A stretch of DNA of 64,000 nt from Patescibacteria group bacterium (GTDB lineage Bacteria > Patescibacteriota > Patescibacteriia > CAIXNZ01). Location: positions 91,932 through 155,931 of the forward strand of contig JBAZJU010000001.1 of NCBI GenBank assembly GCA_041651155.1. The letters are read 5' to 3'. The notes under the pieces were generated by a model. It worked only from the letters and a program-made list of their open reading frames with translations, did not search any database and had not been told where the DNA came from. Each line of letters starts with the position of its first letter. The first letter of the stretch is position 1. This document shows, piece after piece, positions 2,957-54,395 of the stretch. A program made the translations under genes and the position numbers.

Positions 2957-3337
2957 ATGAAAATTACAAAGGTTGAGGATTTAAATGTTTGGCAGGAAGC
3001 AAGATTGTTTTGTAATGATATTTACGATTTGATTAAAAATTTTCCAGCCGACGAAAAATATAATATAGTTAGGCATTTAAGAGAAAATGCTCGTGGCATT
3101 CCGGCAAATATTGCTGAAGGATTTTATAGATATCATTATCAGGATAGTATAAGGTTTTATTTAATCGCCAGAGGTTGTATTGGTGAAATGAAGAGCGATT
3201 TATATATTAGTTTGGATAGGGGATATATTACTAAAGAAAAATTTGAAGATTTAAATAATAAAATTGAAAAAATTTTAATAATGTTAAATGGGATGATTAA
3301 ATCCACCAAAAATCAAATAAAAAACACCAATAACTAG
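2957..3337 (+). CDS. four-helix-bundle protein (TIGR02436, 23S rRNA intervening-sequence protein family)
   Basis: LRENARGIPANIAEGFYRY...FYLIARGCIGEMKSDLYIS motif set. Length 126 aa. Confidence 0.75.
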   Translation: MKITKVEDLNVWQEARLFCNDIYDLIKNFPADEKYNIVRHLRENARGIPANIAEGFYRYHYQDSIRFYLIARGCIGEMKSDLYISLDRGYITKEKFEDLNNKIEKILIMLNGMIKSTKNQIKNTNN

Positions 3338-3424
3338 TTACTAATAACCATTTACCAATTACTTTCCCCCAATTTTAGCCCCAAACGGGTTTTTTTTATT
3401 TTCAAATCTTATCCACACCTAAAA

Positions 3425-11545: not shown

Positions 11546-11628
11546 TCAGTAAAAGCACCAAACAACAAATTCCAAATATCAAATAAACACCAAAAAATAA
11601 ATAACAAATTACAAACAAAAATAAAAAT

Positions 11629-11901
11629 ATGGAGAGAAAATTCGATTTAGAAGATCGCACTTTAATTTTTGGAAAAGAAATAATACATTTGTGTAAATCT
11701 TTGCCTGCAAATACTATAAATTTCAGGTTAATTGATCAAATTATACGTTCAGGGACTTCTATGGGAGCGAATTATAGAGAGGCGAATGAAACAGAAACCA
11801 AAAAAGATTTCAAACATAAAATAAGGATTTGCTTAAGAGAGTGTAAAGAAACGGGATATTGGTTGGAACTTATTGAAGAAGCTAACCCCCCCCCCTTTTA
11901 A
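11629..11901 (+). CDS. four-helix-bundle protein (TIGR02436), apparently frameshifted at a C10 homopolymer; the C-terminus continues in the +1 frame to about 11970
   Basis: The N-terminus is paralogous to the 46668 protein (DLEDRTL.F.K..L.LCK...GANYREAN). The ORF stops as ...EANPPPF. The +1 frame then encodes KEKLRKLLQENNELRKIFASILIKSE, matching the paralog's C-terminus ...QLARIFASIGAKK. Confidence 0.6.
   Translation: MERKFDLEDRTLIFGKEIIHLCKSLPANTINFRLIDQIIRSGTSMGANYREANETETKKDFKHKIRICLRECKETGYWLELIEEANPPPF
11886..11895. repeat. C10 homopolymer tract at the frameshift point
   Basis: cccccccccc sits in an otherwise AT-rich genome, exactly where the reading frame of the four-helix-bundle gene breaks. 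Confidence 0.8.
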
Positions 11902-12009
11902 AGAAAAATTAAGGAAACTTCTACAAGAGAATAATGAGTTAAGAAAAATATTCGCTTCTATTTTAATAAAGTCTGAATAGTTTGAAATTTTGATGCTTGT
12001 TATTTAAGA

Positions 12010-12058
12010 TTTATTTGGCCTACGCCAACCGTAGTTGGCTTCGGCCAACGAAGGTTGG
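12010..12058 (+). repeat. Triple-palindrome element, copy A (gccaac-cgta-gttggc-ttcg-gccaac-gaag-gttgg)
   Basis: Three overlapping 5-6-bp hairpins with tetraloops cgta, ttcg and gaag. Same architecture as copies at 15166 and 46455 but with a different stem sequence. Confidence 0.6.
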
Positions 12059-12208
12059 AGCTTGGTATTTGCTATTTGGTTATTAAAAAGAGGGAGCTTT
12101 TAACCGAAGAACAATATAATTACATTGTTTCTGAACTGAACAAGTTACCTAAAGAAATTAATACTCTGGTAAAATTTACCCGCGAACGTATGTCAATTTA
12201 ATCATTTA

Positions 12209-15066: not shown

Positions 15067-15165
15067 TTTTTTTTAGAAAATATATAAGAACCCTGTTTCG
15101 CTAGAAGCAGGGTTTTTTGGTATAATAAGGTTAAATAACAAATGACAAAAATCAAATAACAAACC

Positions 15166-15203
15166 TTTGTTTGCTGTAGCAAACTACGGTTTGCGAAGGC
15201 AAA
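15166..15203 (+). repeat. Triple-palindrome element, copy B (gtttgc-tgta-gcaaac-tacg-gtttgc-gaag-gcaaa)
   Basis: Near-identical to copy C. It is preceded by A/C-rich AAATAACAAA-type repeats at 15131-15165. Confidence 0.6.
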
Positions 15204-15239
15204 AAAATATCAAATAATAAAATCCAAAATTTTAAATTT

Positions 15240-17591
15240 ATGTCTGAATTGATTTTGAAATTCTCCCAAGTATCCATAAAAGATGTTGGCAAAGTAGGTG
15301 GCAAAAATGCCAGCTTGGGTGAAATGTTTAGGAATTTAATTAAAAAAGGGATTAGTATTCCTGATGGTTTTTGTACTACTGCCAAGGCATGGCAGTATTT
15401 TTTGGAGTATAATTCTTTAAAAAAGCCTATTAAGGAATCTTTGCTAAAGTTAGATAAGAATAATCTGGAAAGTTTGGAATTAACTGGCGCTAAGATCAGA
15501 AATTTAATCATGCGCGGCAGTATTCCGCCAGATTTGGCTGCTGAAATTATTGCAAGTTATAAATTACTTTCCAAGAAATACATGGTTTTAAATGTTGACG
15601 TGGCAGTGCGTTCAAGCGCCACTGCTGAAGATTTGCCAGGCGCTTCTTTTGCCGGCCAGCAGGAATCATATTTAAATATCAAAGGCGAGAAGGAACTACT
15701 TTTAGCCATTAAAAGATGTTTTGCCTCATTGTATACAAATCGCGCAATTTCATATCGCGAAGACCAGGGTTTTAATCATTTGAAAGTTTATTTATCTGTT
15801 GGCGTCCAAAAAATGATCCGTTCTGATTTGGCTTCAGCTGGCGTGATGTTTACGATTGATACAGAATCTGGCTTTAAAGATTTAATAATTATTAATTCTT
15901 CATATGGTTTGGGAGAAAATGTTGTGAAAGGCAGAGTCACGCCTGATGAATTTTTTATCTGGAAATCAAATTTGAAAATTATTAAAAAAGAGCTCGGCAG
16001 TAAAAAAAGAAAATTAATTTACACTAATAATTTAAAAAATCCAACAAAAAATATTTTGGCTGCGCCAAATGAGCGCCAGCAGTTTTCTTTAAAAAATTCT
16101 GAGATTTTGCAGCTGGCAAAATGGGCGCAGATTATTGAGCGCTATTACAAACGTCCCATGGATATTGAGTGGGCCAAAGACGGCCAGGCAAATAAATTGT
16201 ACATTGTCCAAGCACGGCCTGAGACAGTTGAGTCTTTGGTTAATCCCAATATTTTAGAACAATATATTTTGCCCAAAAGAGGGAAAGCAATTTTAAGTGG
16301 GGAAGCCATAGGTCAGAAAATTGCCACTGGCAAAGTTAAAATTATTAAAAATGTTAAACAATTAGGTGCTTTTAACCCGGGCGAGATATTGGTGACTGAA
16401 ATGACTGATCCTGATTGGGAGCCGGTTATGAAAAAAGCCGCTGGCATTATTACTAATTCAGGCGGGAGAACCTGCCATGCGGCCATTGTTTCGCGCGAAT
16501 TGGGCGTGCCGGCAATTGTGGGCAGTAAAATTGCCACCAAAATTTTAAAAGACGGGCAGAAAATTACTTTAAGCTGCGCTGAAGGTGAAAATGGTCGTGT
16601 TTACGATGGATTTTTACCATTTAAAATCAAAAAGACTGATTTGCGCAAGGTAAAAAAGCCTAAGGTAGATATTATGATGAATCTTGGCGACCCAACCCAG
16701 GCTTTTAAATATTCTTTTTTGCCCAATGAGGGTATTGGTTTGGCGCGTTTGGAGTTTATAATAACCAACTATATTAAAATCCATCCCTTAGCGCTCACGA
16801 ATTATCACAAATTGCCGGCTAATTTAAAAAAGCAGATTAATGACTTAACTTCTGCCTATAAAAACAAAACTGATTTTTATGTAGAGCAATTAGCGTTTGG
16901 TATTGCCCAGATTGGAGCTGCTTTTTATCCCAAAGATGTGATTGTGCGCTTTTCTGATTTTAAAACAAATGAATATGCCAATTTAATCGGCGGGGAATTA
17001 TATGAGCCAAAAGAAGCAAATCCAATGATTGGCTGGCGTGGCGCCTCAAGATATTATGATCCGAAATTCAAACCCGCTTTTGATTTGGAATGCCAGGCCA
17101 TAAAAAAGGTCAGAAATGAAATGGGTTTAACCAATATCAAGGTGATGGTGCCGTTTTGCCGCACCTTAGAAGAAGCTAGAAAAGTTATCCAAATATTAAG
17201 GCAAAACGGCCTCAGGCAAGGCCAAAATGGTTTACAGGTTTATGTCATGGTTGAGATTCCCAGCAATGTAATTTTGGCAGATGAATTTGCTAAAATTTTT
17301 GATGGGTTTTCAATTGGTTCCAATGACTTAACTCAATTAACTTTAGGTTTAGACCGGGACTCGGAATTAATTTTACAAATCGGTGATGAAAGAAACGAGG
17401 CAGTAAAAAAACTGGTCATTCAGGCAATTAAATCAGCTAAAAGGGCTAAGATAAAAATCGGCATTTGCGGCCAAGCACCGTCTGATTTCCCTGATTTTGC
17501 CCGCTTTTTAATGGAAGAAGGAATTGATAGCATTTCTTTAACTCCAGATACGGTAATAAAAACACGCCTTGATTTAAGCAAAAAGAGGTGA
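15240..17591 (+). CDS. ppsA: phosphoenolpyruvate synthase (pyruvate, water dikinase)
   Basis: An N-terminal VGGKNASLGEM ATP-grasp motif and the PEP-utilising mobile-domain motif GGRTCHAAIVSRELGVPAIVG. The C-terminal PEP/pyruvate domain is present. Length 783 aa. Confidence 0.85.
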   Translation: MSELILKFSQVSIKDVGKVGGKNASLGEMFRNLIKKGISIPDGFCTTAKAWQYFLEYNSLKKPIKESLLKLDKNNLESLELTGAKIRNLIMRGSIPPDLAAEIIASYKLLSKKYMVLNVDVAVRSSATAEDLPGASFAGQQESYLNIKGEKELLLAIKRCFASLYTNRAISYREDQGFNHLKVYLSVGVQKMIRSDLASAGVMFTIDTESGFKDLIIINSSYGLGENVVKGRVTPDEFFIWKSNLKIIKKELGSKKRKLIYTNNLKNPTKNILAAPNERQQFSLKNSEILQLAKWAQIIERYYKRPMDIEWAKDGQANKLYIVQARPETVESLVNPNILEQYILPKRGKAILSGEAIGQKIATGKVKIIKNVKQLGAFNPGEILVTEMTDPDWEPVMKKAAGIITNSGGRTCHAAIVSRELGVPAIVGSKIATKILKDGQKITLSCAEGENGRVYDGFLPFKIKKTDLRKVKKPKVDIMMNLGDPTQAFKYSFLPNEGIGLARLEFIITNYIKIHPLALTNYHKLPANLKKQINDLTSAYKNKTDFYVEQLAFGIAQIGAAFYPKDVIVRFSDFKTNEYANLIGGELYEPKEANPMIGWRGASRYYDPKFKPAFDLECQAIKKVRNEMGLTNIKVMVPFCRTLEEARKVIQILRQNGLRQGQNGLQVYVMVEIPSNVILADEFAKIFDGFSIGSNDLTQLTLGLDRDSELILQIGDERNEAVKKLVIQAIKSAKRAKIKIGICGQAPSDFPDFARFLMEEGIDSISLTPDTVIKTRLDLSKKR

Positions 17592-21402: not shown

Positions 21403-22785
21403 ATGTCTGAAAAAATATTCAAATTAGATTACAGTTTTATGTCTGCCCAAAAAGTGGGCAATTTTGGGTTTAAAGAAACAGATTTAGCCAGTCTGAGCCG
21501 CAAATTGGCCGGTTTTAACAGGAAATTGGAAATAATGGCAGAGGAGCCGGATTTAAGTTTTCGGCAATTGCCTTATGATCAAGAAGCAGTTGAATTAGCT
21601 ATGAAGTTAGCCGGCAGATTAAAGCGCCAATTTACAAATTTAGTCATAGTCGGCATTGGCGGTTCTGATTTAGGCTCCAGGGCTATTTATAGCGCTTTAG
21701 CCGGCAATTATGGCAGCTGCATCAAGAGACCGCAAGCAATGGCCATCAATTTTTTAGGGGATACGACAGATCCCCAGCCAGTGCTTGATTTATTAAAAAT
21801 ATTGGACTTAAAAAAGACTGTTTTTTATATTGTTTCTAAATCAGGCGACACGATTGAACCTTTAAGTAATTTTTTGCTTCTGCGGGAACAGGTAATTAAA
21901 CTTGTTGGTTACAAAAATCATAAGAAACACTTTATTGTCACAACTAATTTAGCAAAAGGCCTGGCCTCGGCCAAGACGGGCGCTCTTTTAGAAATTGCGC
22001 AAAAAGAAGGTTATCTGGTCCTGGGTCATTATCCAGGCGGCGGCCGCTTCTCGGTTTTATCTGTTCATGGATTATTGCCAGCTGCTTGCGCCGGGTTTGA
22101 CCTTAAAAAGCTTTTAGCAGGCGCAAAAGCAATGGATCAACTTAGTAAAAATAATAGCTATTTAAAAAACTTGCCTTGGCTTTTTGCGGCTATGCAATAC
22201 TTGGCTTACAAAAAGGGACAAAACATTTCAGTTTTAATGCCCTACAATTATTATTTGCGCAATTTTGCTTTATGGTTTCGGCAGTTATGGGCGGAAAATT
22301 TGGGCAAGCAATATAATTGGCAGAAGAAAAAAGTTAATGTGGGTATTACTCCTGTAGCTGCTTTGGGTCCGACAGACCAGCATTCTCAGGTTCAACTTTA
22401 TATAGAAGGGCCGTTTGATAAAATTATTACTTTTATTAAAGTTAAAAAATTAGAAAGTTTGAAAGTCCCAAATTACAGGAATTCAGAAATTTCTTATTTG
22501 GGCGGGCATGAGTTTAGTGAGATTTTAAATATTGAACATAAAGCTACGGCAGTTTCTTTAATGAAAAATAAAAGGCCTAATTGCACGATTATTTTGCCAG
22601 AACTTAATGAATATTATCTGGGGCAGATATTTATGTTTTTTGAAATGACCACGGTATATTTAGGAGAATTATTGCAGATTAATGTTTTTAACCAGCCAGG
22701 CGTTGAACAGAGTAAAAGATATATGTACGGGCTTTTGGGCAAGAAAGGGTTTGAGAAAGAGAAAAGGGAAATTTTAAGCATCTAA
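21403..22785 (+). CDS. pgi: glucose-6-phosphate isomerase
   Basis: The VIVGIGGSDLGSRA P-loop-like PGI signature and sugar-isomerase (SIS) domains. Length 460 aa. Confidence 0.85.
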   Translation: MSEKIFKLDYSFMSAQKVGNFGFKETDLASLSRKLAGFNRKLEIMAEEPDLSFRQLPYDQEAVELAMKLAGRLKRQFTNLVIVGIGGSDLGSRAIYSALAGNYGSCIKRPQAMAINFLGDTTDPQPVLDLLKILDLKKTVFYIVSKSGDTIEPLSNFLLLREQVIKLVGYKNHKKHFIVTTNLAKGLASAKTGALLEIAQKEGYLVLGHYPGGGRFSVLSVHGLLPAACAGFDLKKLLAGAKAMDQLSKNNSYLKNLPWLFAAMQYLAYKKGQNISVLMPYNYYLRNFALWFRQLWAENLGKQYNWQKKKVNVGITPVAALGPTDQHSQVQLYIEGPFDKIITFIKVKKLESLKVPNYRNSEISYLGGHEFSEILNIEHKATAVSLMKNKRPNCTIILPELNEYYLGQIFMFFEMTTVYLGELLQINVFNQPGVEQSKRYMYGLLGKKGFEKEKREILSI

Positions 22786-22865: not shown

Positions 22866-23004
22866 GGAGCGGTAGTTCCCGCCTTCGCTGAAGCTTCGGT
22901 CTTCACCGACCGAAGTCCCGCCGTGGCGGGACGAAGGTCGGCGGGCAGGCAGCTTGGAAGCATGAGCTGTAGTGGGTGCTAACCAGCTTCATAAATTTTT
23001 TTTA
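22866..23004 (+). other. GC-rich structured element (candidate small RNA or tRNA-derived remnant) whose first 13 nt match the 5' end of the adjacent tRNA-Asp
   Basis: ggagcggtagttc is identical to the tRNA 5' end. There are several perfect hairpins (cttcggtc/gaccgaag, cccgcc/ggcggg, gaagcttc). The element ends in a T9 run at 22996-23004. Confidence 0.4.
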
Positions 23005-23013
23005 AGTTATCCT

Positions 23014-23090
23014 GGAGCGGTAGTTCAGTTGGTTAGAACGCTACCCTGTCACGGTAGAGGTCACGGGTTCGAGTCCCGCCCGCTCCGCAC
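23014..23090 (+). tRNA. tRNA-Asp (anticodon GTC)
   Basis: A cloverleaf with GGAGCGG/CCGCTCC acceptor, GTTC..GAAC D-arm, CTACC-CTGTCAC-GGTAG anticodon arm and GGGTTCGAGTCCC T-arm. CCA is not encoded. Confidence 0.85.
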
Positions 23091-29742: not shown

Positions 29743-29985
29743 TTAAATTAATCGTTTATTTCTAAAAGCAATGCCTGAAGATGTTTTAAGATATCTTTCA
29801 AAGTTTAATGCTTTTTCTTTATTTTCAAATGCGCAGTAAAAAATTATTTTCCATGGTTTAAATGTGTCAGTATATTCCGAATTACCTTTATTATGATCAA
29901 TTAGTCTATTATCGATATTCTCGGAAAATCCTGTATATAATTTTTTAGGGAATTTGATGCTTTGGAGAATATAAACAAAAAACAT
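29743..29985 (-). CDS. GIY-YIG nuclease family protein (small URI-type)
   Basis: FFVYILQS...KLYTGFSENIDNRLIDHNKG...PWKIIFYCAFENKEKALNFERYLK. Length 80 aa. Confidence 0.75.
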   Translation of the reverse strand: MFFVYILQSIKFPKKLYTGFSENIDNRLIDHNKGNSEYTDTFKPWKIIFYCAFENKEKALNFERYLKTSSGIAFRNKRLI

Positions 29986-44543: not shown

Positions 44544-45113
44544 AAAATGCCTACCAATATCTTTAAAGAAAAATATCTATTATTCCGGGCGAAAAACAAG
44601 GATTCAGAAGCATTTGCCCGCGTGTACGATTTTTATGTGGATAGGATCTACCGCTTTGTTTTTTTTAAAATAAATCGGCCAGATGAAGCTCAGGATATTA
44701 CTTCTGAAGTTTTTTTAAAAACCTGGCAATATATTATTGATGGCAAAAAGATCAATAATTTAAATGCGCTATTTTACAAAATCGCCAGGAATTTAGTAAT
44801 TGACCATTATCGCAAGGCCAGCGCTCAGGATGTGTCGCTGGAGAATATAAAAGCAGATGCGGAGGAAATAAAAGAACTTGCTGATGAGCAAATAAATAAA
44901 ATTGATAAAAAGATACAGGTTGAAAAAATAGAAGAAAAATTAAGAGGGTTAAAAGATGATTATCGCGAAATAATAATTTTAAGATATATTGAAGACTTAT
45001 CAATCGGCCAGATCGCGGAAATAGTGGAAAAGAAAAAAGGCGCGGTGCGGGTTATTTTATATAGGGCGCTGAATGCTTTGAAAGACCTAATGGGTGAAGC
45101 TGATAAAAAATAA
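44544..45113 (+). CDS. ECF-type RNA polymerase sigma factor (sigma-70 family, regions 2 and 4)
   Basis: Region 2 YRFVFFKI..DEAQDITSEVFLKTW and LVIDHYRK. Region 4 LSIGQIAEIVEKKKGAVRVILYRALNALK. The ORF track starts at 44508. Confidence 0.8.
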   Translation, partial: KMPTNIFKEKYLLFRAKNKDSEAFARVYDFYVDRIYRFVFFKINRPDEAQDITSEVFLKTWQYIIDGKKINNLNALFYKIARNLVIDHYRKASAQDVSLENIKADAEEIKELADEQINKIDKKIQVEKIEEKLRGLKDDYREIIILRYIEDLSIGQIAEIVEKKKGAVRVILYRALNALKDLMGEADKK

Positions 45114-46470
45114 AATTTACAACTCAAATAAAACAATGAAGAAACGCGACCTTCTCAAACAAATTAATAATTTGAAAAAAACAATTAAGCCTGATTCAGC
45201 CTGGCAAAAGGCAAATCGGGAGATTTTGCTGTCTCAAATCAAATCCCAGACCAGCGCAGAATTTTCTTATAGCCACAAAATAATGCTGCAGAATTTATTT
45301 CTGGCTGTTTATAAGCCGGTTGGCAGCATGATTTTAATTTGCAGCGTTTTATTCGGCGCCTGGATTGCCAGCGTGGGGGCGACTAAAAACAGCCAGCCGG
45401 GCGATTTATTATACGGCTTGAAATTAACCGCAGAAAGAATGCAGGTTAATTTGACTATGAATGATGAAAAACGTACTAATTTAGAAATCGCTTTTGCTGA
45501 AAGAAGGTTAGATGAAATCAAGCAGACTACTGCCAAAGACGGTTCAAACAAAAACAAGAAGAATCTGGAAGTAACCCTGAAAAATTTTCAGGAAAGCATA
45601 AATAATGTCAAAAGCAATCTGGCCAAATTAGAAGCGACTGATAAGCAGGCTGCTTTGAAAGTTGCTGATTTAATTGATGAAAAGACCAAGTCTTATGTCG
45701 GGATATTAAAAGATCAACAAGATCAAAATCCGCAATTTGTGGCGAGTGAAAACGCTGAACAGGCTATTTCAGATTCCAAAGCAACAGGCAATAAAGCTTT
45801 AAGCGTGATTTTGGAAGAGTTTGAAGCCGGCAATAGCGGCTTGAAAGTTGATGATTTAAGGCAAAAAATTAATACCAGAATTGATGATTTGGATAAAAAC
45901 ATAGAATCAGCCAAAAGTGATATCCCCCTGATTATTGAGAATAAGAAAATAGCTGATGAAGCGGCCGCTGCCAAAGCTCTGGCGGATAAAGAAGCTGCCA
46001 AAAAAGCCGAGGAAGAAGCCGCCGCTAAGGTTTTGGCGGATAAAGAAGCCTTGGCGAAAACGGAGCTAAGCTCCGACGCTTCGGAGCTTAGCTCCGTTCA
46101 GGAAGTTGCTAATACCAATACTAATACATCACCAGAACCGGTTAAAGAAGCCCAGCCAGAATTACAGAACACTAATAGTTCAGCTGAAATCAAGCAAGAT
46201 GAGCAAATAGTTAGCCAGCCTGAAGAGGTTTTGCCAACGATTGATGAGATTAAAAATAAGCCTGCAGAAGCCGCAGCCTTATTGGTCAGAGCGCGTGATT
46301 ATGTAAAAAGCGGTTCTGTGAGCCAGGCTTTTGATCTGGTAAAACAGGCTGATGACATTATGACTTTGGTCAATAAAGTGATTAAGGCAAATAGTGTTTA
46401 TTTAGAAGCACCGGAAGAAGTGAAGGTAGGTGAACCGGTTGATGTAATGACGAACCTTCGTTTGCAGTAG
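45094..46470 (+). CDS. Putative anti-sigma factor (single-pass membrane, coiled-coil, Ala/Lys/Glu-rich)
   Basis: It overlaps the sigma gene by 20 nt, suggesting translational coupling. A TM helix lies at about residue 76-96. The periplasmic part is helical and low-complexity. Confidence 0.45.
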   Translation: MKLIKNKIYNSNKTMKKRDLLKQINNLKKTIKPDSAWQKANREILLSQIKSQTSAEFSYSHKIMLQNLFLAVYKPVGSMILICSVLFGAWIASVGATKNSQPGDLLYGLKLTAERMQVNLTMNDEKRTNLEIAFAERRLDEIKQTTAKDGSNKNKKNLEVTLKNFQESINNVKSNLAKLEATDKQAALKVADLIDEKTKSYVGILKDQQDQNPQFVASENAEQAISDSKATGNKALSVILEEFEAGNSGLKVDDLRQKINTRIDDLDKNIESAKSDIPLIIENKKIADEAAAAKALADKEAAKKAEEEAAAKVLADKEALAKTELSSDASELSSVQEVANTNTNTSPEPVKEAQPELQNTNSSAEIKQDEQIVSQPEEVLPTIDEIKNKPAEAAALLVRARDYVKSGSVSQAFDLVKQADDIMTLVNKVIKANSVYLEAPEEVKVGEPVDVMTNLRLQ

Positions 46471-46492
46471 CAAACTACGGTTTGCGAAGGCA
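46455..46492 (+). repeat. Triple-palindrome element, copy C, overlapping the stop codon of the 45094 gene
   Basis: ccttcgtttgcagtagcaaactacggtttgcgaagg, with an outer ccttcg/cgaagg stem. It is followed by A/C-rich repeats at 46493-46660. Confidence 0.6.
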
Positions 46493-46667
46493 AATGACAA
46501 AGCATCAATAACAAAATAAATTCAAATAATTAAATTTAAATAACAAAACTTGAATAACAAAAAAATAATCAATGACAAAATCTAGATAACCAAAAAATAA
46601 GAAATAAATAAAAATTTCCGCCTCTGGCGGAAAATAATAAAACAAAAATAAAAATTAAAGTAAAAAT

Positions 46668-47009
46668 ATGGATTTTGATTTGGAGGATAGGACATTAAAA
46701 TTTGCGAAAAATTGCCTTGATTTGTGCAAGCAATTGCAGAAGGATGTTATAAGTTTGGAGTTGGTTAAGCAATTTGTGAGAGCGTGCTGTTCAGTCGGGG
46801 CAAATTATAGAGAAGCAAATGACACAATAACTAAAAAGGATTTTTTACATAAAATTGCGATTTGTCGTAGGGAGTCTAAAGAAAGTAAGTATTGGTTGGA
46901 ATTGTTGCTGCACACTAACCCCAATTTTAAACTGCAAATTGAACCTCTGATTGACGAATCCCACCAACTAGCCCGCATCTTTGCCAGCATCGGCGCGAAA
47001 AAGAAGTAG
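46668..47009 (+). CDS. four-helix-bundle protein (TIGR02436)
   Basis: A paralog of the 2957 and 11629 genes. It is flanked by A/C-rich repeats upstream and their inverted T/G-rich copies at 47010-47140. Confidence 0.75.
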   Translation: MDFDLEDRTLKFAKNCLDLCKQLQKDVISLELVKQFVRACCSVGANYREANDTITKKDFLHKIAICRRESKESKYWLELLLHTNPNFKLQIEPLIDESHQLARIFASIGAKKK

Positions 47010-47118
47010 TTTAGTTATTTGATATTAAGTATTAGTTATTTAAATTTTGAGTTTATTTTGGTTATTAAGTATTAGGTATTTGGTATTCTTTTGGTATTTT
47101 ATATTGGTCATTTGGTAT

Positions 47119-47458
47119 TTGATAAAATTTACAATTTAATTAATAATAGCTGGTAAATCGCCAAGGGGATTATGCAGGGTTTCCTTGGCGGTTTATCCGC
47201 TCGTTCTCTGCTTAATTGCAGAGGACACAGCTTTGGATTTTAAAGATCCGAAGCAAGCTAATTAATGCTCTTTGTTTGAAAGCTAGGTTAAAGTATGAAG
47301 ATTAAGGCCTGGATTTCAAAGGGTAAAGGTCGATTTCTGGTTTAACCAGAAGACCTTTTTGGGAACAGGATTACTTTCAAGCCTCTAAGAGGCAAGAAAG
47401 AAACTTAACTTCCTACTCTGGCGATCGGGCAAGGAGTTTAAGAAAGGACAAGTTTAAT
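47119..47458 (+). promoter_or_regulatory. Candidate promoter (TTGATA-N17-AATAAT) plus ~300-nt GC-enriched structured 5' leader of the S-layer-like gene; contains an ECF-like GGAAC-N17-TCTAA motif at 47362-47388
   Basis: Multiple short hairpins (cgccaagg/ccttggcg, ctctgc/gcagag, gcctc/gaggc). No ORF. Long leaders are typical of S-layer genes. Confidence 0.35.
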
Positions 47459-51044: not shown

Positions 51045-51259
51045 TGGAAGAATGGTGGTTTGGGAGGAATTTATCAACCTCCCCCAATCCCCCTCCTTTT
51101 CTAAGGAGGGGGTATGGAGGTTATCATGACCTAAGGTGCAGGGCTTTGGGTTTTGTTTTTTGGGGAAGATCGTGGAGGGAGTGGGACGGTTGATTTGTTT
51201 TGTTTAGGGATTTATGGTATTATAAAGGGAGCAATTATTTAATATTCAATTTAAAAAAT

Positions 51260-51517
51260 ATGAAAGAAAAAAATAAATTACAATTTAATATTATTTTTAG
51301 GCCTGAAGAAGAAGGTGGATTTACTGCAATAGTTCCGTCTTTGCCAGGTTGTATTACTTACGGCAAAGATTTAAAAGAAGCTAAAAAAATGGCGATTGAT
51401 GCAATTTATGGCTATATTGAATCAGTAAAAAAACATAAAGAAGAAATACAGTCAGATGAGGAAAGTTTTATTAGTTTAATTAGGCTTCCTCAAAAGCACT
51501 CTAGACTTTATGCCTAA
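51260..51517 (+). CDS. hicB: HicB family antitoxin (UPF0150 N-domain)
   Basis: EEGGFTAIVPSLPGCITYGKDLKEAKKMAIDAI. The ORF-track start at 51200 lies inside the conserved promoter repeat, so the real start is 51260. Confidence 0.65.
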   Translation: MKEKNKLQFNIIFRPEEEGGFTAIVPSLPGCITYGKDLKEAKKMAIDAIYGYIESVKKHKEEIQSDEESFISLIRLPQKHSRLYA

Positions 51518-51948: not shown

Positions 51949-52014
51949 TTGACTTTTGGCAGAAAAAGAAGTAAAATGAAAGTAGTTTCAATAAAAATGA
52001 AAGTAGTTTCAATT
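51949..52014 (+). promoter_or_regulatory. Promoter TTGACT-N17-TAAAAT with two 17-nt direct repeats (ATGAAAGTAGTTTCAAT x2) as a candidate operator of the MNT-HEPN pair
   Basis: The -35 is at 51949-51954, the -10 at 51972-51977. The direct repeats are at 51976-51992 and 51998-52014. Confidence 0.5.
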
Positions 52015-52016
52015 TT

Positions 52017-52547
52017 ATGAATATTAAATTGACCATTCTCAATAAGAAAGTATTTAATTTCTTGGCTGATTGGCCTGAAAAACAGTTTTTTTCTAAGGAA
52101 ATCTCCGACAGATTGGGGATATCTTTGGGTGGCGCCCATAACAGCCTCAAGGCTCTGCTAAAGGCAGGCGTGGTTGTTTTTGAGCAAAAAGGGAATATGA
52201 AGTTTTTTAAAATTAACTTTAGCAGCCCTTTGTTTAAACAATTGCGCTCGGCAGGCATTGTGGAGAGCCTTTTGCCTTTGGTTAAGAAAATAAAAAATCA
52301 CTGCCTCAATGTGATTTTATTCGGCTCCGCGGCCAGGGGCGAACAGACTGCCAAAAGCGATATTGATATTTTTATATTAACCAATAATCCGTTGGAAATA
52401 AGAAAATTACTGCCAGCCAAAATTAACCGACTGCTTCTTAAGGCCATAATTAAAAAACCGAATGAGTGGAGCGAAATGGAAATTAAGGAACCGGAGTTTT
52501 TTAGGGAAATAAAAAACGGGATTAAATTATATGAATCAAGATTTTAA
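52017..52547 (+). CDS. Nucleotidyltransferase (MNT, minimal NTase) with an N-terminal winged-helix; antitoxin-type partner of HEPN
   Basis: ILFGSAARGEQTAKSDIDIF matches the GS-x9-DxD NTase motif. Confidence 0.7.
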   Translation: MNIKLTILNKKVFNFLADWPEKQFFSKEISDRLGISLGGAHNSLKALLKAGVVVFEQKGNMKFFKINFSSPLFKQLRSAGIVESLLPLVKKIKNHCLNVILFGSAARGEQTAKSDIDIFILTNNPLEIRKLLPAKINRLLLKAIIKKPNEWSEMEIKEPEFFREIKNGIKLYESRF

Positions 52548-52968
52548 TGATTGCCTGGACAAGGGCAAGATAAAAATATTTTCCAGGGGGAAGTTTGTTG
52601 CCCCTAAGGAAATCAGATTGGCTGAGGAAGACTTGAAGATTGCCTCGGCAAGCTTTAGTGACGGCAATTTTCGCTGGTGCGTGATTCAGACGTATTATTC
52701 TATGTTTCATTCAGCGAGAGCCTTATTGTATTATCAAAATTATCGGGAGCATAGCCATTATTGCCTTATTCAGGCAATCAGAGCATTGTATGTTGGAAAC
52801 AAATTATTGGATTTGTCACTGGTTGAAGCAATGGCCGAAGCGAAAAATCTGAGGGAAGCCGCGGATTATTACGGAGATTATAGCCAAATTAACGCGGAAA
52901 AATTATTGGAACATGCCAAGAATTTTTTAAAAGCGGCAAAGGATATTATAAAAAATGGTACTTTATAG
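52531..52968 (+). CDS. HEPN domain protein (toxin-type partner of MNT)
   Basis: Helical; FHSARALLYYQ and LREAADYYGDY fit the Rx4-6H-type HEPN motif region. It overlaps the MNT gene by 17 nt. Confidence 0.65.
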   Translation: MNQDFNDCLDKGKIKIFSRGKFVAPKEIRLAEEDLKIASASFSDGNFRWCVIQTYYSMFHSARALLYYQNYREHSHYCLIQAIRALYVGNKLLDLSLVEAMAEAKNLREAADYYGDYSQINAEKLLEHAKNFLKAAKDIIKNGTL

Positions 52969-53238
52969 CGGACTTCAGTCCGCGAATGACCCCATTACCT
53001 TACGGGGACTTCCACCGTCGCTCTGTGAGTTATGGCGGACAAGAAAGTCCCCTGTAATGATTTTTCTTTGTTAAGGTCCTCTGTAATGATTTCTCTTTAT
53101 TTTTATGATAAAATTAAGGTGGAAAACCCCATAAATTTGGTTTAAGGAGGGGGTGTTTACAGGAGTTTTTTATTTGTTTTGTTTAGGGATTTATGGTATT
53201 ATGAAAGGAGCAATTATTTAATATTTTATTTAAAAAAT

Positions 53239-53508
53239 ATGAAAGAACAATCCTGCCTGCCGGCAGGCAGGTTAAAAATTTCAAAATTTGGCAGGCAATT
53301 GCCTATTGTTATTGAAAAAGGGGAAGATGGTTTTTATATTGTAGAATGCCCGCTTTTTGACGGTTGTTTTACACAGGGTAAAACAATTGATGAGGCGCTT
53401 AGAAATATTAAAGAAGTCATATCTTTGATTTTGGCAGAAAAAGACGCCAGAAATACTTTGAAGGAATATAAATCAACAGAATTTAGTTTGCATACCATTA
53501 CCGTTTAA
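53239..53508 (+). CDS. HicB-like antitoxin, second copy
   Basis: EDGFYIVECPLFDGCFTQGKTIDEALRNIKEVI. The ~80-nt upstream region (53164-53241) is a repeat of 51185-51262. Confidence 0.6.
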   Translation: MKEQSCLPAGRLKISKFGRQLPIVIEKGEDGFYIVECPLFDGCFTQGKTIDEALRNIKEVISLILAEKDARNTLKEYKSTEFSLHTITV

Positions 53509-53846: not shown

Positions 53847-54395
53847 ATGAATGAATTATTTAAAAATAAATATCGTACAGATTCCGTTCGTTTAAAAGAA
53901 TGGGATTATTCTTGGCCGGGTTTATATTATGTAACAATTTGTACCAAGGATCGTTTTTGTTGTTTAGGGGATGTAAAAAATGGTTTGGTTTATTTATCGG
54001 AAATTGGGAAAATCGTGTTTGAAGAATGGTTAAATACGCCAAAGATCAGACCGAATGTGGCGTTGGATGATTTTATTATAATGCCGAATCATATTCATGG
54101 AATTATAGAAATTAAAGAAATTGGGGATGTTGTAGAGACGCATTGCAATGCGTCTCTACAGAAACCCACATTCGGCCCGCAACGCAATAATTTGGCCTCA
54201 ATAATTCGTGGTTTTAAAGGGGTTGCCAAGAAAAGAATAAATCAAAAATTTGGAGAAAATTATTTTGCCTGGCAATCTGGCTATTACGAACACATTGTCC
54301 GGGACGAAGATGATTATGCCAGAATTAAAGAATATATTGCCTTAAATCCGATCAGATGGGAACTTGACAGAAATAATCCAAAAAATAGATCCTAA
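53847..54395 (+). mobile_element. IS200/IS605-family Y1 (HUH) transposase, RAYT-like
   Basis: The HUH motif PNHIHGIIEI and the catalytic Tyr region QSGYYEHIVRDEDDYARIKEYIALNPIRW. The ORF track extends it to 53709. No room exists for a right-end hairpin before the next gene. Confidence 0.7.

Follow-up and report, generated by a model that had tools for sequence, protein, structure and literature searches.

A probable family of very small palindromic insertion elements in Patescibacteria

A 64-kb stretch of a Patescibacteria group bacterium contig (JBAZJU010000001.1; the whole 64,000 nt are referred to hereafter as the window) carries three copies of a short palindromic element (type I; copies A, B and C) and one variant copy (type II; copy D), far above what is expected by chance. 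The window lies on a metagenome contig of 294 kb, and NCBI assigns the proteins of that contig to a Patescibacteria group bacterium metagenome-assembled genome. The copies are likely, in our view, to be members of a family of palindromic insertion elements in Patescibacteria that are non-autonomous and of very small size, Patescibacteria being the group also known as the candidate phyla radiation (CPR), and that the family is of the same general kind as the repetitive extragenic palindromes (REP) and the small dispersed repeats (SDR). The unit inserted next to a tetranucleotide that is then present on both sides of it. Inside the unit, variable tetranucleotides are predicted to pair with one another in a 12-bp nested hairpin, and this pairing is shown by covariation among the copies. 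The initial annotation of the window had described copies A, B and C as a recurrent element whose stems changed while the pairing and the loops were kept. The sequence, an architecture scan and a covariance model all agree that the three copies are present as described, and the pattern of changing stems with constant pairing and loop motifs holds far beyond the window.

Copies in the window and architecture of the unit

The family unit can be written as g' [CCTTCG g CCGWAG g' CTWCGG g CGAAGG] g', in which constant 6-mers alternate with the variable tetranucleotides g and g'. The inserted unit is 36 nt long in type I and about 37-38 nt in type II. Since the four 6-mers make two nested inverted-repeat pairs, the constant part is its own reverse complement, and for this reason a copy scores equally on both strands at the same coordinates.

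None of the three type I copies is assigned to a strand. Copy A (12015-12058) reads TTGG [CCTACG ccaa CCGTAG ttgg CTTCGG ccaa CGAAGG] TTGG, with the 36-nt unit at 12019-12054 between 4-nt repeats at 12015-12018 and 12055-12058. On the + strand its spacers are fully canonical (CTAC, CGTA, TTCG and GAAG) and its fold has a predicted energy of -24.8 kcal/mol (z -3.2). Copy B (15160-15203) reads CAAA [CCTTTG tttg CTGTAG caaa CTACGG tttg CGAAGG] CAAA, the unit occupying 15164-15199 between a canonical terminator (15089-15118) and the start of ppsA at 15240. Copy C (46451-46494) reads CGAA [CCTTCG tttg CAGTAG caaa CTACGG tttg CGAAGG] CAAA, with the unit at 46455-46490. The earlier observation that copy C overlaps a stop codon was borne out: the TAG (46468-46470) of the DUF5667 gene (open reading frame (ORF) 45094-46470) lies inside copy C, which supplies the last five codons of the gene together with the stop. 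An outer ccttcg/cgaagg stem had been singled out in copy C as well. The stem is present, but it is a constant of the whole family and not special to that copy (the corresponding pair is CCTACG/CGAAGG in copy A and CCTTTG/CGAAGG in copy B). Elsewhere in the DUF5667 coding region, at 46060-46097, there is a double palindrome, CGGAGC-TAA-GCTCCG ACGCTT CGGAGC-TTA-GCTCCG, that encodes TELSSDASELSSV; it is not callable as an insertion because the region is of low complexity and variable in homologs.

A general scan of the window for the arrangement X-loop-X'-loop-X-loop-X' returned exactly three GC-containing cases, which are copies A, B and C. The pattern GTTKGC-N4-GCMAAC-N4-GTTKGC gave nine overlapping matches where 0.33 were expected, and none of 100 shuffles gave as many. 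The covariance model (R1), run with filters off over the 64-kb window, likewise recovered A, B and C only, at 71-73 bits. The forward alignment in which these copies were first presented is structurally valid even for copy A, because the constant parts are their own reverse complement. Each type I copy has five 6-nt arms, however, and not the four first described, at an exact 10-nt spacing (12014-12059, 15159-15204 and 46450-46495), and by sequence copy A is better read as its reverse complement, in which it shows 36 of 46 identities with copies B and C compared to 21 of 46 in the forward direction. Aligned in this way, copy A differs from B and C by one concerted G/T change in each arm. Both the arm sequence and the flanking T-rich arrays mark copy A as inverted relative to the other two. 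The presence of five arms and the lack of an orientation preference follow from the fact that the type I hairpin can be drawn on either strand, with a 10-nt offset.

Copy D (22896-22941, + strand) is the type II variant, TCGG [TCTTCA ccga CCGAAG TCCCGC CGTG GCGGGA CGAAGG] TCGG, and lies between pgi (21403-22785) and a tRNA gene (23014-23087). It shares its ends, a GAA/GAA internal loop and a flanking TCGG repeat with the family, while its inner hairpin, GTCCCGC-CGTG-GCGGGAC, is independent of its outer arms. Type II relatives were found in L170, L014 and L071. Just before copy D, the sequence GGAGCGGTAGTTC at 22868-22880 duplicates the first 13 nt of the tRNA gene, 146 nt upstream of it; this duplicated tRNA 5' end may be the remnant of an insertion or a duplication at the tRNA.

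Covariation, predicted fold and the family beyond the window

Two complementary patterns were used to search for the family. Scan 1 held the arms fixed and left the rest free (GTTNGC-N4-GCNAAC-N4-GTTNGC-N4-GCNAA) in a collection of species-representative genomes. It returned 16 loci from about 11 metagenome-assembled genomes (MAGs) that bear the label Patescibacteria, Parcubacteria or Uhrbacteria, along with a few whose labels are doubtful; the other matches, in Myxococcota and further groups, were unrelated repeats. The spacers proved to be conserved though the pattern had left them free. The free arm base was T, G or A and was concerted in arms 1-4 of every copy, and in arm 0 of 17 of 19 copies. 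Scan 2 held the spacers fixed and left the arms free (CGNNNNCCGWAGNNNNCTWCGGNNNNCGAAGG) in a metagenome collection. At least 117 metagenome stretches matched, and the matches listed contain 112 non-redundant copies with at least 20 different arm tetranucleotides, among which CCGA/TCGG is the commonest, followed by CCCG, CAAA, CCAA, CTAA and CTGA. Further copies and covariation, the absence of which in relatives would have spoken against the initial annotation, were both found.

Several copies are present per MAG and nearly all of them are singletons, the exceptions being one tandem pair (L147) and a locus with two copies 1.6 kb apart (L059). No copy was found in the viral contigs searched. At the gathering threshold of Rfam 15 the window gave only tmRNA and tRNA and the element matched no family, and E-value scans of copies A and B gave only sub-threshold chance matches. 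Literature searches on Patescibacteria with palindromic repeats or miniature inverted-repeat transposable elements (MITEs) returned nothing relevant. In GC-rich contigs (L051, L058, L073, L087, L099, L128 and others) the element lies within a conserved, dispersed, non-coding repeat of ~250 nt, which contains several hairpins and an optional 55-nt module and has no Rfam match. The window arms GCNAAC/GTTNGC resemble the RYYYAAC/GTTRRRY of integron attC sites; this identity was rejected, as the arms elsewhere read GTCGGC, GCCCGC and others, and no integrase or cassette context was seen among the neighbouring genes examined.

RNAalifold folded the scan 1 set into a single nested hairpin, with pairing of arms 1 and 4 and of arms 2 and 3. 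In the predicted structure a symmetric 3x3 internal loop, in which G(A/U)A faces GAA, separates the outer from the inner stem, and the hairpin ends in a C(UNCG)G loop. In the scan 2 set, in which the arms were unconstrained by the search, this fold was 95.3% paired compared to 74.1% after shuffling; eight of eight variable pairs changed on both sides (256 cells), and none of 500 shuffles reached the score. On the same set a fold into adjacent hairpins (76.8% paired) and the other nesting (75.3%) were both rejected. A fold that pairs the constant spacers (CCTTCG with CGAAGG and CCGWAG with CTWCGG) is the predicted optimum for copy B but was also rejected, since it was 91.7% paired against 90.0% when shuffled; its central pairs are broken in 5 of 19 and 8 of 19 copies, and those positions act as free loop nucleotides. 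The nesting is real, and not merely a consequence of the likeness between arms, because in some copies (L024:2653-2707, a group of copies beside tRNA-Ser genes and the type II copies) the inner stem is unrelated to the outer stem. The three overlapping hairpins first proposed are superseded by one nested hairpin that is able to form on both strands. The loop sequences had been given correctly, including C(UUCG)G or C(UACG)G for the middle loop. GAAG, however, is not a GNRA loop, and in the best-supported fold GUA and GAA are not hairpin loops but the two sides of the 3x3 internal loop.

Strong covariation of a nested hairpin is also in favour of a functional cis-acting RNA kept at many sites by selection on its structure, along the lines of the initial annotation, such as an intercistronic processing or RNase III site, a 3'-end stabiliser or a factor-dependent or bidirectional terminator. 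Consistent with this, the C(UNCG)G tetraloop is found in 16 of 19 copies together with the conserved G(A/U)A/GAA internal loop, the predicted stability lies between -17 and -25 kcal/mol, with z of about -3 to -4, and the canonical fold is available on the sense strand of the neighbouring genes for four of the four window copies. The stem mismatches speak against it: G.U was seen in 15 cells and A.C in 13, so that nothing suggests that wobble pairs are tolerated on a transcribed strand. The lack of asymmetry between the two mismatches therefore gives no pointer to a transcribed strand, nor to RNA over single-stranded DNA. Neither an Rfam family nor a U-tract goes with the element. Intrinsic terminators were rejected, as no T-run follows any of A, B and C on the sense strand, in agreement with the initial annotation that these are not ordinary terminators; copy B, in addition, is downstream of a canonical terminator of its own spacer.

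The alternating inverted 6-mers at an exact 10-bp spacing might instead be an array of half-sites on one face of the DNA helix, bound by a dimeric or oligomeric regulator or by a nucleoid protein. We find this hardly credible, given that the half-sites differ between copies within one genome (CAAA, CCAA and CCGA types), that the inner and outer stems vary independently yet stay complementary, that the conserved GNA/GAA pair does not form a palindrome in duplex DNA and that the neighbouring genes are unrelated.

Insertion polymorphism, gene context and candidate mobilising enzymes

Syntenic contigs of relatives were obtained through homologs of ppsA and of the DUF5667 gene. In one of these (L163, ppsA 86% identical), the spacer between the mechanosensitive-channel gene and ppsA is near-identical to that of the window, including the upstream terminator and the A-rich array, and lacks exactly 40 nt. 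At the copy B junction the window reads AATAA-CAAA-[36 nt]-CAAA-AAAAT whereas L163 reads AATAA-CAAA-AGAAT, with a single CAAA (alignment A4). The element was present upstream of ppsA in none of five relatives. A second pair has the empty site in the window, a TTTG (47090-47093, no strand assigned) within a T-rich heptamer array downstream of a PF05635 gene. At this site L170 has TTTG-[37-nt type II]-TTTG, a 41-nt insertion in which TTTG is duplicated (alignment A3); a further 63-nt insertion relative to the window adjoins the type II element in L170. The indel boundaries were exact and identical in both filled/empty pairs. The region orthologous to copy A is too diverged to show a clean empty site, and the C-terminal tails of DUF5667 homologs are too variable to date the insertion of copy C. 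No copy was found in ~120 kb of related contigs (L163-L169 and L171-L173), compared to four in the 64-kb window.

Pairing between the right flank and the internal tetranucleotide was seen at all four positions (columns 15-18 with 45-48), in 91-93% of cells at each, and both flanking 4-mers are identical in 69 of the 112 copies among the matches listed. The initial annotation had taken covariation as the signature of a selected structure. The covariation is real, but because the variable tetranucleotides match the tetranucleotide that flanks the insertion, it is poor evidence for a selected cis-regulatory or processing RNA.

Every copy at the AT-rich loci lay in an intergenic spacer or at the end of a gene. 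With respect to co-directional neighbours, 14 copies had the same orientation and 12 the opposite one, and a few copies were in convergent and divergent spacers as well. The neighbouring genes are unrelated and include ppsA, secA, yidC, gdh, DUF5667, a 5'-3' exonuclease, tRNA-editing and tRNA genes. The unbiased orientation, the unrelated gene contexts with divergent spacers among them, the lack of a G.U excess and the clean presence/absence with 4-nt repeats between close relatives are the reasons why a cis-regulatory role is not supported.

Copy B is inserted in an A-rich tandem array of ~7-nt units (AAATAAC/AATGACA; 15128-15163, + strand). Similar arrays flank copy C (46495-46610) and, inverted, copy A (11975-12013 and 12060-12085), and where copies are AT-rich the unit of the array is similar to the arm and the target sequence. 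Many spacers of the window are filled by such ~7-nt arrays, with hairpin elements inside them (further arrays are at 2852-2950, 3326-3363, 11559-11629 and 47011-47121; units AAATAAC, CAAATAA, GTAATTG, TTTGGTA and others, in either orientation), and they resemble the short tandemly repeated repetitive (STRR) heptamer arrays of cyanobacteria. The presence of AT-rich copies inside arrays with an arm-like unit, and the concerted arms within a copy, as if templated from nearby sequence, would be consistent with quasi-palindromes that arise de novo by slippage or template switching in the arrays, with no moving element at all. We consider such an origin very improbable. The same 24 constant nucleotides are found across genomes with arms from A/T-rich (CAAA) to G+C-rich (CCGA, CCCG), copies are also present in flanks other than heptamer arrays, and the indels have the exact boundaries described above; an independent origin of the 24-nt constant sequence is implausible.

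Small PF05635 genes (23S rRNA intervening-sequence protein) are located at 2957-3337, 11629-11901 and 46668-47009, the one at 11629 being apparently truncated or frameshifted. Each is bracketed by inverted heptamer arrays; for example, 2957-3337 has GTAATTGGTAAAT upstream and ATTTACCAATTAC downstream. The cassette at 46495-47125 is absent in syntenic L168 and L169 and present in L170, and therefore the PF05635 cassettes also look mobile. A PF05635 gene adjoins copies A and C and the copy in L027 but only one of nine further small neighbours tested was such a gene. These genes are abundant, and a linkage with the element was rejected as a weak association.

The agent that mobilises the element would most likely be a hairpin-recognising single-strand DNA enzyme acting in trans. 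The foremost candidate that we infer is a RayT/IS200-type Y1 HUH transposase, with a GIY-YIG nuclease as the alternative. A RayT-like Y1 HUH transposase gene is present in the window (53847-54395). Its product has the HUH and Tyr motifs and matches NCBIfam REP_Tyr_transpos with 59 bits (E 4e-16), below the curated cut-off of 80. Homologs are found on the element-bearing contigs behind L091, L094, L170 and L003, and the RayT-like family has more than 2000 members, of which the organism-named ones belong for the most part to lineages of the Patescibacteria group. The gene of the window contains, between the HUH and Tyr motifs, an in-frame, GTAG-tagged perfect palindrome (54130-54160, GTAGAGACGCATTG/CAATGCGTCTCTAC), which is seen nowhere else in the window.

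Several points weigh against a mobile element of this kind. No transposase or nuclease was physically linked to the element among the genes examined, and no element flanks the RayT-like gene 53847-54395 or its homologs in L091, L094 and L171-L173. These genes are packed between host genes, and the possibility that the RayT-like gene and the element form a REPtron was rejected. In L170 the RayT-like gene has another hairpin repeat (GTAACAGACTAAAGTCTGTCGTTCC...), one that the window lacks, on both of its sides, a REPtron-like arrangement; this and the 63-nt insertion mentioned above were noted for 1000-1830 and 5130-5195 of L170. Since the RayT-like genes are unflanked by the element and L170 carries another repeat, the link to RayT is circumstantial. 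The presence/absence cases are only two, and for each of them a precise deletion between the 4-nt repeats is formally possible. A concerted change of three internal tetranucleotides is also hard to get by point mutation. Some selection at the RNA level is plausible because the UNCG loop is a stability motif of the RNA type. Finally, in one lineage the element is fixed between a tRNA-Ser gene, whose 3' end it abuts, and a small GIY-YIG nuclease gene (L090 2527-2930 and about 12 similar loci, including L068, L072, L076, L106, L119, L125, L143 and L144). Several tRNA-Ser anticodons are represented, and from one locus to another the inner stem has undergone compensatory changes. This lineage looks like long-term retention under selection, beyond parasitism.

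Long retention with compensatory changes beside tRNA-Ser genes is at the same time a point in favour of a cis-acting RNA, but in this group the canonical fold is on the strand antisense to both flanking genes. Together with the orientation, context, mismatch and indel data given above, this makes a cis-acting RNA an unlikely account of the family; it would be compatible with secondary co-option of a mobile element. The selected RNA structure of the initial annotation is only one part of the account, and the best-supported reading is a small mobile palindromic DNA repeat, with the folding of its transcripts as a by-product.

Some other features of the window and its relatives were noted. A conserved hairpin upstream of a 1165-aa gene (gctggtaaatcgccaagggga...tccttggcggtttatccgc; window 47135-47200, L168 4380-4560 and L169 4400-4560) shows compensatory changes in the relatives, which carry an extra loop insert of ~100 nt, and could represent a structured leader RNA. 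Several small genes belong to types that commonly are mobile or have a part in defence; these (PDDEXK_3, GIY-YIG, HicB-like in two copies and HEPN) lie at 955-1365, 29743-29985, 51200-51517, 52531-52968 and 53179-53508. A perfect 21-nt tandem repeat is present at 51973-52013.

Relation to known systems and meaning for Patescibacteria

The closest analogues of the element are the cyanobacterial SDRs and the REP/REPIN elements. SDR1-8 of Nostocaceae cyanobacteria are reportedly 21-27 nt long. Compared by description only, the element is like them in being a dispersed hairpin repeat of tens of nucleotides with compensatory changes, often in tandem heptamer repeats, with insertion at short specific sequences, recent insertion polymorphism and no linked transposase. 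The element is longer, at 36-38 nt, and is found in Patescibacteria rather than Nostocaceae. Unlike an SDR, it has a self-complementary constant part that gives the same hairpin on both strands, and variable tetranucleotides that match the flanking repeat. Reports of SDRs are confined to Nostocaceae, where their insertion is at short sites of specific sequence (PMC5861425).

REP and REPIN elements are 20-40-nt extragenic imperfect palindromes mobilised by RAYT (Y1 HUH) transposases (PMC3733652, PMC3116915), and one end of the REP hairpin bears an unpaired tag, GTAG or CGTC, that is conserved (PMC3733652). The element, with its unit of 36 nt, is likewise an extragenic imperfect palindrome of 20-40 nt in many copies; it forms sub-families with complementary stem changes, its copies are mostly between same-direction genes, and RayT-like genes are present in the same genomes. 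GTAG is found 5' of the inner hairpin in three of three type I copies of the window and in 6 of 19 copies in alignment A1, where 11 of 19 have CGAA; GWAG is the family-wide form. The likeness to the REP tag is ambiguous, since the motif of the element is not invariant. The element differs from REP in that its copies are singletons and not the inverted dimers of REPINs, nor doublets or clusters, in that it does not flank the RayT-like genes as in a REPtron, and in that its clear 4-nt flanking repeat covaries with internal sequence. Its symmetric five-arm, self-complementary scaffold is without a counterpart in the REP families of the cited literature.

IS200/IS605 elements recognise their target and cleavage sites by pairing with an internal guide tetranucleotide beside the foot of a hairpin; recognition by such guide tetranucleotides is said to have been described in 2008. 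The element resembles them in its hairpin architecture and in having a tetranucleotide at the hairpin foot that is complementary to the junction tetranucleotide. Neither of them gives rise to a genuine duplication of the target, as the tetranucleotide on the right can be part of the element. In contrast to IS200/IS605, the element has no transposase gene, consists of a single composite hairpin and has perfect 6-nt terminal inverted repeats, which IS200/IS605 elements do not have. By analogy, its mobilisation may follow a similar course.

MITEs are typically 50-500 bp long. The element is like a MITE in being non-autonomous, with terminal inverted repeats (CCTTCG...CGAAGG), short flanking direct repeats and presence/absence polymorphism. 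It is an order of magnitude smaller than typical MITEs, however, and its flanking repeat matches internal sequence and is not arbitrary. No parent insertion sequence with CCTTCG ends was found among the element-neighbouring genes examined or the window ORFs scanned, no genome-wide search having been made. TIGR arrays (for tandem interspaced guide RNA) consist of two alternating repeats of 8-12 nt with 9-nt variable spacers in 5-15 units, with a Nop-domain gene adjacent (PMC12045711). A TIGR (Tas-associated) array was rejected, the element being a single 36-nt unit with mutually complementary 4-nt variable parts and no array; no Nop-domain gene was found among the part of the window ORFs that was scanned with Pfam.

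If the family is made up of insertion elements, its copies would multiply as DNA and enter AT-rich heptamer arrays as well as other spacers, the site being chosen through complementarity or identity with the internal tetranucleotides. After insertion a copy would be co-transcribed with the flanking genes and would add a very stable hairpin to the mRNA, which may stabilise the transcript, cause pausing or guide processing, for example as an exonuclease barrier or a processing site. The predicted stability and the UNCG loop make some consequence at the RNA level plausible.

A more specific, and tentative, possibility is that the internal 4-mers serve as guides that choose the insertion site by base pairing, the element being a minimal hairpin substrate mobilised in trans in the manner of IS200/IS605 and RayT systems. 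We think this is doubtful, although it would have clear implications. The arm variants (CAAA, CCAA, CTAA, CTGA, CCGA, CCCG and others) would then be naturally retargeted lineages, and the element would be the smallest guide-directed mobile element known and a natural case of retargetable single-strand DNA insertion. It would also provide a function, or the missing substrate, for the RayT-like proteins that are widespread in Patescibacteria.

The element is among the smallest mobile-looking DNA elements and is without a description for Patescibacteria in the literature searched. Its design is unusual in that a self-complementary constant scaffold carries interchangeable tetranucleotides that match the insertion site. 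For annotation, this means that such hairpins should not be labelled regulatory RNAs or terminators from structure alone. CPR/Patescibacteria genomes are tiny, streamlined and known from metagenomes, and their non-coding DNA is almost unexplored. An inserting element of 36 nt would mean that these streamlined genomes still carry active selfish DNA, which can rewrite the last codons of a gene, and the element may serve as a simple marker of genome dynamics at the strain level.

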